From a virus, in UHGV virus genome UHGV-0192751: a DNA stretch of 12,489 bases, one strand, 5' to 3'. The notes under the pieces are model-generated. The model was not told the DNA's origin and searched no databases. It worked only from the letters and a program-made list of their open reading frames with translations. Within the stretch, counting starts at the first letter, position 1. Each line of letters starts with the position of its first letter. Of the stretch, positions 11,354-12,489 are shown piece after piece. The translations under genes were made by a program, and so were the position numbers.

Positions 11354-11372
11354 AAGGAACCTTTGGGAGAAT

Positions 11373-11441
11373 GCCCGGCATGGCCGGGCAACGGTTAAAC
11401 CCCATCATTCTTGTCTTGAGGCAACCGCACCTTCAAGAATG
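11373..11441. terminator. Two adjacent hairpins between convergent genes (candidate bidirectional terminator region)
   Basis: Hairpin 1: GCCCGGC (11373-11379), loop ATG, GCCGGGC (11383-11389), with no U-tract. Hairpin 2: CATTCTTG (11406-11413) pairs with CAAGAATG (11434-11441), followed on the + strand by TATAAAATTAAAATAT. Confidence 0.4.
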
Positions 11442-11448
11442 TATAAAA

Positions 11449-11757
11449 TTAAAATATCTCATTGGGTCGCAATGAAGCTTCGGTTTTCTTCTTTCTCCAA
11501 TACTCATATCCCTGAGAAGTCACTCGGAGGGAACTTAAATCAATCATCCAACTTCCTTCATTAGTGCCAGAACTATCAAAGCTGACCTTGCCTTTCAAAA
11601 AACCGTCATCGTGTAAAAATGCAATGTATCCATAGGCTTCTTTGAAATTTCCGATTTCATCGACCAGATCCTTCCATGCTGCATCAGTAAGGCTTTCAGG
11701 ATAGGCGTCAACGAAATATTTGAGGGTGGTGATTTTTTTAGGGTGGCTGATGTTCAT
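11449..11757 (-). CDS. Hypothetical cytoplasmic protein, opposite-strand cargo gene between Tfa and invertase
   Basis: AAGGAG (complement of 11764-11769) is 6 nt upstream of ATG (complement of 11755-11757). The 102-aa product MNISHPKKITTLKYFVDAYPESLTDAAWKDLVDEIGNFKEAYGYIAFLHDDGFLKGKVSF... has no signal peptide or transmembrane segment. AT-rich. The track's longer start at 11802 lacks a ribosome-binding site. Confidence 0.6.
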   Translation of the reverse strand: MNISHPKKITTLKYFVDAYPESLTDAAWKDLVDEIGNFKEAYGYIAFLHDDGFLKGKVSFDSSGTNEGSWMIDLSSLRVTSQGYEYWRKKKTEASLRPNEIF

Positions 11758-11859
11758 TGGAGTCTCCTTTTTTGACCGGTCAATTTTATCATAAATTGGC
11801 ATGGCAATTTGGGATGGTCCAATCAGGCCTTCACACCAAACGTACAGTGGCTGGTCTTG

Positions 11860-11873
11860 TTAGCCATGGCTAA
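11860..11873. promoter_or_regulatory. Perfect 14-bp palindrome TTAGCCATGGCTAA in a divergent intergenic region (candidate operator)
   Basis: Exact reverse-complement symmetry. It overlaps a possible promoter for the invertase (TTGTTA, 16 nt spacer, TATTAA) and an adjacent palindromic AT tract AAAATATTTT (11883-11892). Confidence 0.3.
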
Positions 11874-11971
11874 AGAGCTATTAAAATATTTTGTCTCACT
11901 AAAAATACGAATCCATTTACTGTCGTAACTTTAGTGAAACGCTTTCGCGCTTTTAATGAACCGCTTCACTC

Positions 11972-12489
11972 ATACTTATTGGCTACGTGAGAGTGTCAAC
12001 AAATGATCAGAACACTGCACTCCAGCGAAACGCGCTCGAGAGTGCAGGATGTGAGCTGATTTTCAAAGACAAGATCAGCGGTAAGGTGTCCGACAGACCG
12101 AGATTAAAAAAGGTGCTCCGGACGCTATCTGAAGGCGATACGTTGGTGGCGTGGAAATTGGATCGGCTTGGTCGCAGCATGCGACATCTTTTTGTGTTAG
12201 TGGAGGAACTGCGGGAGAAGGGGGTTAACTTTCGGAGCCTGACGGATAGCATCGATACGAGTACGCCTATGGGGCGGTTCTTCTTTCATGTCATGGGGGC
12301 TATGGCAGAAATGGAAAGGGAACTGATTGTCGAATGTACCCGGGCAGGATTGGCGGTTGCGCGCAGAAGGGCGGATCGGCGGCCGCAGGCCAAAGTTAAC
12401 GGATGAGCAGTGGCGGGAAATGGGGGAGCGGATGGCAACCGGTGAATCACGACAAAGCGTATCAAAAACGTATGGAGTAGGGCTCTCAA
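11972..12489 (+). pseudogene. Invertase locus interpreted as a pseudogene (start codon lost, internal frameshift); 3' end beyond the window
   Basis: In-frame ATA at 11972-11974 where ATG is expected. Frame change at the GCGCGC tract 12359-12364: the 0 frame stops at 12404-12406 while the +1 frame continues with recognisable family sequence to the window end. Confidence 0.5.
11987..12406 (+). CDS. Site-specific DNA invertase, serine recombinase (Hin/Gin/Cin/Pin family), catalytic domain; apparently disrupted
   Basis: RVSTNDQNTALQRNAL...WKLDRLGRS...SLTDSIDTSTPMGRFFFHVMGAMAEMERELIV is the family catalytic domain with the Ser in VSTNDQ. The only canonical start is GTG 11987; the position where homologs begin MLIGY reads ATA CTT ATT GGC TAC (11972-11986). 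The C-terminal helix-turn-helix domain is encoded in the +1 frame after about 12363 (EGRIGGRRPKLTDEQW...). Confidence 0.7.
   Translation: MRVSTNDQNTALQRNALESAGCELIFKDKISGKVSDRPRLKKVLRTLSEGDTLVAWKLDRLGRSMRHLFVLVEELREKGVNFRSLTDSIDTSTPMGRFFFHVMGAMAEMERELIVECTRAGLAVARRRADRRPQAKVNG

Follow-up and report, generated by a model that had tools for sequence, protein, structure and literature searches.

Gene content of the interval between the Tfa gene and the invertase

The stretch of DNA analysed here (12,489 nucleotides of the virus genome UHGV-0192751; hereafter the window) carries, in its interval from 11354 to 11986, only one sizeable open reading frame (ORF), a minus-strand gene for a protein of 102 amino acids (aa) that is predicted to fold as a winged helix (11452–11757, with the stop codon TAA at 11451–11449). 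On one side lies an intact tail fibre assembly (Tfa) gene on the plus strand, convergent with the ORF (10925–11353), which matches the Pfam family Caudo_TAP over its full length (E = 1.6e-23), and on the other side, from 11987, the resolvase N-terminal domain of a Pin/Gin-type serine recombinase (Pfam, E = 1.3e-43). Because the homologous proteins begin with MNIS or MDIS, matching the ATG at 11757, and because a ribosome-binding site, AAGGAG, can be read from the sequence 6 nt before that ATG (11764–11769, minus strand), the gene is taken to extend from 11757 to 11452. The same AAGGAG is kept in the Citrobacter copies of the gene and in those of two loci of P2-like phages, L008 and L019. In the translation of the interval, the minus-strand frame is open over 117 codons from an ATG at 11802; this start was rejected, since it lies upstream of the conserved −10 element described below and has no ribosome-binding site, and the homologues use the downstream ATG. 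A first-pass annotation of this DNA had called an AT-rich, minus-strand ORF of 102 aa with a near-consensus AAGGAG, and we recovered the same length and the same ribosome-binding site. The G+C content is 0.415 in the interval and 0.405 in the ORF, compared with 0.512 in the whole window and 0.526 in the structural genes (1–9700).

The family to which the protein belongs is tiny, with around 20 clusters among 5.8 billion. A word-indexed search of the 5.8 billion clusters yielded three relatives, an exhaustive HMMER scan of 1.84 billion representatives yielded 12 at E ≤ 1e-3, and a profile search yielded 14 clusters. In an alignment of 18 sequences, identity to the window protein ranges from 25 to 93%, and residues P20, L48, W70, R78 and G83 are invariant. 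Comparison with the 93%-identical copy of Citrobacter freundii gave a nonsynonymous substitution rate (dN) of 0.029 and a synonymous rate (dS) of 0.142, i.e. a ratio of about 0.2 that is based on only 15 substitutions. Because of this ratio, and because relatives with identities down to 25% exist and the fold is predicted with confidence, the ORF is a real gene under purifying selection and not a chance reading frame.

No match was obtained with tblastn in 50,697 sequenced phage genomes, or for the exact 30-mer spanning promoter, operator and ribosome-binding site in the representative genomes of 100,044 species, and a search of plasmids gave a single match (30% identity), on a Kosakonia conjugative plasmid. 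The protein has no match in NCBIfam, its best match in PHROGs is insignificant (E = 0.075), and none of the defence models of PADLOC-DB 2.0 matches it at E ≤ 1. Literature searches on YjcQ and DUF2513 returned nothing relevant. Judged by its sequences, the family is rare and has not been described; its fold, its design and its genomic habit are all familiar.

Many members of the family end in a conserved tail of glycine followed by arginine, such as SSGMLRRTR, SGSGLIRRERRY or GGGWILRSRRS (proteins P0002, P0006, P0010, P0011, P0014, P0015, P0017, P0019 and P0020, and the protein of L019). This tail, which might bind nucleic acids or mark the protein for degradation, is missing from the window and Citrobacter proteins, which have the C-terminus ...TEASLRPNEIF.

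Predicted fold of the protein

AlphaFold, supplied with the 18-sequence alignment, predicted the topology H-H-H-beta-beta-H, with helices at residues 5–18, 25–35 and 38–50, a wing at 58–61 and 69–72 and a C-terminal helix at 81–96 (predicted local distance difference test score, pLDDT, 81.5; predicted template modelling score, pTM, 0.71). The model has the winged helix-turn-helix (HTH) core and the additional C-terminal helix that characterize the PadR/MarR build, and it can be superposed on the YjcQ structure 2hgc. Its best Foldseek matches in the Protein Data Bank (PDB) are PadR, Pex, MepR and RTP, with template modelling (TM) scores of about 0.5, and its best matches among the viral models of BFVD include several phage proteins annotated as YjcQ or as "DNA-binding protein". 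At the sequence level, a weak match to Pfam YjcQ is found in three of 11 family members (best E = 0.0047). The prediction of a winged helix with an added C-terminal helix, of the PadR/MarR/YjcQ kind, is thus solid for this protein.

The ORF product has no match at E ≤ 1 to Caudo_TAP, Gp53-like_C or other fibre families, which the neighbouring genes match strongly. The first-pass annotation was right that the protein resembles neither a fibre nor a Tfa chaperone; its remark that no motif could be recognized is superseded by the winged helix obtained from structure prediction and fold search.

Conserved candidate promoter element and palindrome

Upstream of the gene, a putatively active extended −10 promoter element, TGATAAAAT, whose motif is conserved in the family, lies at 11783–11791 on the minus strand. 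Abutting it, and placed between it and the ribosome-binding site, is a perfect 12-bp palindrome, TTGACCGGTCAA (11772–11783), which occurs only once in the window and is a candidate operator for self-repression. The upstream regions were aligned first for the copies in the window, Citrobacter and L008, after which every available locus of the family was examined. The motif TGnTAnnAT is present in nine of the 11 family upstream regions (expected around 0.01 per region), and in eight of the 11 it stands 25–38 nt before the ATG. At locus L031 it is found 72 nt before the annotated start, which was probably called too far downstream. In distant members, the −10 element is usually the consensus TGnTATAAT.

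Eight of the nine regions with TGnTAnnAT contain GTCAA or TTGAC no more than 20 nt past the −10 element (chance about 0.03 per region); the binomial probability of around 1e-11 overstates this association, since the motif was picked post hoc and the lineages are related. The Citrobacter copies share the perfect 12-bp palindrome of the window, and its counterpart in L019 is TTGACCTCAA. The exact sequence GTCAANNTTGAC (GTCAA-NN-TTGAC) has three occurrences in the 31 loci (L012, L030 and L031), each of them 6–7 nt past the −10 element of a family gene, and in L010, L024 and L029 the left arm is kept along with part of the right one. The bases between the elements have diverged; the −10 element and the arms of the palindrome persist, and, as judged from these alignments, they form a phylogenetic footprint.

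The binding of HTH dimers to inverted repeats in the promoters of their own genes is an established pattern. Because the palindrome lies over the predicted transcription start of a small HTH gene of the dimer type, the standard signature of self-repression, it is most simply interpreted as the gene's own operator. For the Aca regulators, the prediction of operators from such inverted repeats has been validated experimentally (PMC13551039). A role of the palindrome as an RNA hairpin was also considered and appears unlikely, as the stem would have 4 bp at most.

A mobile module in varied genomic contexts

BLAST boundaries shared with Citrobacter prophages and IMG/VR contigs delimit a mobile module of 617 bp (11352–11968), which comprises the ORF, its promoter region and the hairpins on its 3′ side. 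These boundaries (11352/11355–11968) are identical in L002–L007 and L018, and the module recurs at 94–99% identity among varying Tfa, fibre and tail genes, in some cases next to an invertase and in others not. The copies in Citrobacter prophages (94% identity) have no invertase beside them and stand after Tfa and fibre genes of two different kinds. At the end of one of these prophages (L003, 9280–9792), an 83-aa gene on the same strand (phrog_17793, unknown function) occupies the position of the invertase, just upstream of the family gene, and is followed by a fragment that resembles the 3′ end of a tRNA; ARAGORN calls no gene there, and the fragment is probably the prophage attachment site. 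In the IMG/VR contig L017, the match runs on through the invertase to 12413, with the module and invertase 99.5% identical and the tail genes 67–79% identical, and L018 has the module alone.

A 64%-identical homologue of 105 aa is found in the P2-like prophages L019 and L020 and in 43 of 5426 complete Escherichia coli genomes, and a 61%-identical copy stands alone between the Tfa gene and the sheath gene of a P2-like phage (L008). The latter slot, between G and FI in P2, is the position of the non-essential P2 gene Z/fun. Distant members (25–33% identity) occur in lambdoid or HK97-like phages (L010, L012, L024, L027 and L031), where they lie on the opposite strand between the lysis cassette and the terminase or HNH genes, the position of lambda bor. 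In two lambdoid contigs, L012 (7624–7914) and L030 (35–316), the family gene is divergent, across 86–100 bp, from one that encodes an Acb2/Tad1 hairpin domain. This domain is that of the anti-CBASS/anti-Thoeris sponge family, and a 655-aa AAA_15/AAA_21 ATPase is encoded nearby in L012. One subgroup occurs near YfbU, in a Kosakonia chromosome region with TraI and on the conjugative plasmid. In every phage context found, the family gene is opposite in strand to the late genes. A preprint refers to a hotspot for accessory or defence genes among the tail genes of P2; the P2 hotspot of Rousset et al. (2022) is the old/tin one, and not the G–FI slot.

Both the composition of the interval (G+C content of 0.415, against 0.526 in the structural genes) and the mosaic presence of the module (absent from the related prophages L014–L016) are those of a moron. 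Since the family occupies varied accessory slots, namely those after Tfa, between P2 G and FI and between lysis and terminase genes, the ORF is an exchangeable accessory cargo gene, and probably a prophage moron. The first-pass annotation had also seen it as a discrete cargo gene, and with this the recurrence of the module beside different neighbours agrees, as do the relatives in classic moron slots opposite to late genes.

At the kch-yciI locus of E. coli OW1E2 (L015) there is a whole prophage in which an acyltransferase gene lies between the tail-fibre-region genes and the invertase. At the same locus in E. coli mip270_04 (L001), beside yciI, there is an ORF copy truncated by IS3 (from window position 11546) together with the same frameshifted invertase. 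A 1340-bp Logan contig (SRR10682036; L009) matches window positions 11546–11679 and 11867–12156, and joins codon ~52 of the invertase to codon ~28 of the ORF, in inverted orientation, at a TGGAA microhomology beside an IS3 element; the junction yields a fusion ORF of 95 aa (P0003). The contig may reflect a genuine inversion in a remnant undergoing decay; otherwise it is an artefact of assembly.

The tail-fibre inversion system and other features of the window

The first-pass annotation had expected an inverted second set of fibre and assembly genes between Tfa and the invertase. Such a set is present in exactly this interval in a related E. coli prophage (L016), which is 81.6% identical to the window over 7254–9925 and has baseplate genes of identical length. 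The order in L016 is fibre, Tfa, inverted Tfa′, inverted fibre C-terminus and invertase, with inverted 28-bp crossover sites, one where the constant part of the fibre gene meets the variable part and the other immediately ahead of the invertase. Alternative fibre/Tfa sets are carried by L016, L019, L022 and L023; on the opposite strand of 11354–11986 in the window, there is no alternative fibre C-terminus or Tfa.

Within the fibre gene of the window (9474–10922), only the left half of the left crossover site is preserved: at 9908–9935 on the plus strand, corresponding to 3257–3284 of L016, the sequence reads CATTCTCACATACC TT GG and then diverges. The homology between the window and L016 ends at 9925, in the core of this site, where the window retains CATTCTCACATACCTTGG and the right half has diverged. 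Downstream of the site, the G+C content drops from around 0.52–0.53 to 0.42–0.46, marking the constant/variable junction. No full crossover site is present in the window within three mismatches of a hix/gix-type or L016-derived consensus, and the right site is gone; homology to invertase loci resumes at 11949–11972. In relatives, the crossover sites read TTCTCCCAAACC-AA-... (L019) and ...GGTCTGGGAGAA (L016). At the left edge of the module, a half-crossover-like element, TTCTCCCAAAGG, is found at 11360–11371 on the minus strand. The sequence GGAACCTTTGGGAGAA, which resembles the crossover half-site GGTTTGGGAGAA, stands immediately behind the stop codons of three Tfa genes that differ from one another, those of the window, L003 and L008 (the window and L008 Tfa proteins are only 34% identical), and is found only with the ORF module. 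By count, the half-site-like element is not significant (five matches, with three expected), and it may derive from the right site that was lost or simply mark where the module ends.

The Pin/Gin-type serine invertase gene (11972–12489, plus strand), which runs off the end of the window, is a pseudogene. Its canonical MLIGY start is encoded by ATA (Ile), not ATG, and a frameshift after ...TRAGLAVAR (at ~12366) moves the C-terminal HTH (GRIGGRRPKLTDEQW...) to another frame; E. coli mip270_04 has a copy with 99.8% identity, and its annotation reads "frameshifted". With the invertible segment lost and the invertase a pseudogene, the fibre-switching system of the window is dead.

In L019, L020 and the 43 E. 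coli genomes, the order is V-W-J-I-H-G, G′(−), Sv′(−), crossover site TTCTCCCAAACCAACGTTTTATGGAA, ORF(−), an intact invertase of 197 aa (+) and FI-FII-E-T. Homology among these E. coli genomes breaks at the crossover site, ending at query position 680 or 701, and the adjoining fibre cassettes differ. Because the homologue coexists with a complete Tfa′–Sv′ segment, outside the outer crossover site, the ORF is no substitute for an alternative fibre set. Nor, on the explanation favoured below, is it part of the fibre-switching machinery. The first-pass annotation, in which the ORF stood in place of that set, was thus correct as to the slot in the window, which lacks the set, but not as to replacement, given the 64%-identical homologue beside a complete segment in 43 of 5426 E. 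coli genomes.

The G segment of Mu, the C segment of P1 and the P segment of e14, with their invertases Gin, Cin and Pin, share with the window the layout of a fibre gene with a crossover site, a Tfa gene and a Pin-type invertase; the window differs in having no Sv′–Tfa′ set and no right site, a half-degenerate left site and an invertase pseudogene. To our knowledge, the classical Mu, P1 and e14 systems carry no such extra gene outside the invertible segment.

Between the convergent Tfa gene and ORF, a 95-nt gap folds at −32 kcal/mol (z = −2.2 and −1.6) and contains two hairpins. The one at 11372–11390 is G+C-rich, with an 8-bp stem and a 3-nt loop, and appears on both strands in both the minimum free energy and centroid folds. 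The weaker one, at 11406–11441, was found by folding and begins 8 nt past the stop codon of the ORF on the ORF strand. Neither has a T-run, and the terminator scan called neither, so that of the converging terminator hairpins in the first-pass annotation the hairpins are real, but their designation as terminators is not supported by these two features. The hairpin at 11372–11390 is a possible two-way transcription stop between Tfa and the ORF.

Elsewhere in the window, a region in the middle of the tail and baseplate genes (5087–6218) has a G+C content of 0.42–0.48 and contains three small ORFs on the plus strand, with products of 136, 118 and 100 aa whose matches in PHROGs (phrog_3443, 4293 and 3556/6324) have no assigned function; these may be further accessory genes or little-known tail genes. 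At 1148–3163, a 671-aa protein in the tape-measure position has an SLT lytic transglycosylase domain (E = 1.3e-24) and a weak match to PhageMin_Tail. The baseplate genes belong to the E217/Pam3 type (Dit-like, Pam3_gp18 and DUF2612).

Interpretation and comparison with known systems

The explanation that we favour, and in which we place about as much belief as doubt, is that the ORF is a stand-alone accessory gene with a strong promoter of its own, whose product is a winged-helix dimer that binds its own palindrome and is a self-limiting repressor. The ORF would be transcribed from its own near-consensus extended −10 element, opposite to the late tail operon, and this promoter would allow expression in the lysogen independently of the late genes. 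The product, a winged HTH of around 100 aa with a C-terminal helix, would form a dimer that binds the palindrome TTGACCGGTCAA over the predicted transcription start, and occupation of the palindrome would repress the gene and so limit the synthesis of its own product.

Several observations weigh against this explanation. As to the DNA, L008 has a degenerate palindrome and L013 and L027 have none, the order of the half-sites differs by clade (TTGAC..GTCAA in the window, GTCAA..TTGAC in distant relatives), TTGAC is also the core of the −35 consensus, and a simple promoter scan found no standard −35/−10 pair. As to the fold, AlphaFold given only three close homologues reached a pLDDT of 45.7, two of the five models in the 18-sequence run were poor, and the Foldseek E-values are marginal (best 1.7e-3, with a TM score of about 0.54). 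The match of the protein to Pfam YjcQ (PF09639) covers residues 44–87 only and scores 17.1 bits (E = 0.0063), below the gathering cut-off of 23.3. No Pfam PadR or MarR model matches it at E ≤ 1, which leaves it with no sequence-level membership of a DNA-binding family, and a sequence-profile search of the PDB returned only chance matches to antibodies (E > 0.1). Furthermore, the putative recognition helix, KEAYGYIAFLHDD, has few basic residues, its composition being hydrophobic and acidic, and the whole protein is slightly acidic by residue count; because of these two properties, the winged helix could be a protein-binding rather than a DNA-binding one.

That the ORF encodes an anti-phage exclusion or defence factor, a role on which the first-pass annotation had laid emphasis, i.e. 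a small protein made by the lysogen that blocks superinfecting phages, for example by binding phage DNA or protein, seems to us unlikely. The slots occupied by the family, between Tfa (G) and FI in P2-like phages and between lysis and terminase genes on the opposite strand, are typical of prophage defence and conversion genes, an acyltransferase lies in the same interval of a related E. coli prophage, and low G+C content and rarity suit a rapidly exchanged cargo; but location in a hotspot is circumstantial, no PADLOC model matches, the protein has no enzymatic or membrane domain, a winged helix of 100 aa is not a known stand-alone effector, and the conserved putative self-operator points to a regulator. 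A regulator dedicated to a neighbouring gene we judge to be improbable to a like degree. Such a protein would be an Aca-like repressor of an adjacent anti-defence or cargo gene, or a regulator of the divergent invertase and hence of the frequency of fibre switching, its partner in the window having decayed. The family gene is indeed divergent from the invertase across around 200–230 bp in the window, L017, L019, L020 and the 43 E. coli genomes, and from the Acb2/Tad1-hairpin gene across 86–100 bp in L012 and L030; the 83-aa gene of Citrobacter lies just upstream on the same strand, and a strong promoter, a palindrome and a small HTH protein together make up the architecture of an Aca autorepressor. 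The partner, however, varies by lineage and none is obvious in L008 and L010, most Pin-type invertases have no family gene (L014–L016), the module is intact and under purifying selection beside a dead invertase or none, and the only palindrome of the window is at the ORF's own promoter, around 190 bp from the start of the invertase.

A non-functional leftover, either a piece of an alternative fibre/Tfa set that has disappeared or an ORF arisen by chance in DNA under decay, is hardly credible. Decay is evident nearby, as the adjoining invertase is a pseudogene and the window has lost the right crossover site, and E. coli has an IS3-truncated copy and a rearranged one; the ORF itself, in contrast, has no similarity to Tfa or fibre families, a confident winged-helix fold, a dN/dS of about 0.2 and intact homologues in at least five genomic contexts with conserved ribosome-binding site and promoter. 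We give little credence to a wider role, in which the family would be an unrecognized class of phage winged-helix regulators that recognize GTCAA/TTGAC and act in trans during lysogeny, either silencing incoming phages or host genes that have the same palindrome (repressor-based exclusion) or switching adjacent Acb2-like counter-defence genes or tail-fibre inversion.

The self-limiting repressor that we favour has partial counterparts among described systems. P2 Z/fun (between G and FI) and lambda bor (after Rz) are morons in the same positions, and the ORF is like them in its opposite-strand orientation, its lower G+C content and its apparent promoter and stop structures, but they have no relation to the ORF in sequence or fold, being an exclusion protein and a lipoprotein, whereas the ORF product has a fold of the DNA-binding type. 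YjcQ (PF09639), a protein of the Bacillus subtilis SKIN prophage with a nuclear magnetic resonance structure (2hgc), has the winged-helix fold in common with the ORF product; identity is around 16% and the match is below the gathering cut-off, and in the present family the wing is longer and a PW...R...G signature is conserved. No function has been established for YjcQ. Single-helix PadR and MarR repressors appear, from the predicted structure, to share with the ORF product the common build of small dimeric regulators (a winged HTH with a C-terminal helix). Unlike these, it has no match to the Pfam PadR or MarR models or to PDB sequences, an unusually hydrophobic and acidic recognition helix, and neither a ligand pocket nor a regulated efflux or catabolic partner gene. 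Aca autorepressors have a common design with the ORF, namely a small HTH protein of a mobile element and a strong promoter, with an inverted repeat that covers either this promoter or the start site (PMC13551039), and two relatives of the ORF adjoin an Acb2/Tad1-like anti-defence gene. The ORF product, in contrast, is a predicted winged helix, its gene is usually solitary or divergent and not the last gene of an acr operon, and no anti-defence gene lies beside it in the window.

Significance

The gene opens no long-standing question, and its significance lies in the family and in the picture of the locus. The window can no longer be seen as a case in which an alternative fibre set has been replaced; rather, the ORF is a passenger beside fibre-switching systems. 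A family that was an orphan at the sequence level now has a fold, a candidate promoter and a testable 12-bp candidate binding site. If the regulators did act in trans, they would constitute a new regulator family and a "guilt-by-association" marker for phage accessory genes. If the self-operator is true, the palindrome together with the gene would mark the accessory slots of Enterobacteriaceae prophages, i.e. those after Tfa, between P2 G and FI and between lysis and terminase genes, and the possible control of the Acb2-like gene and of the invertase would become testable.

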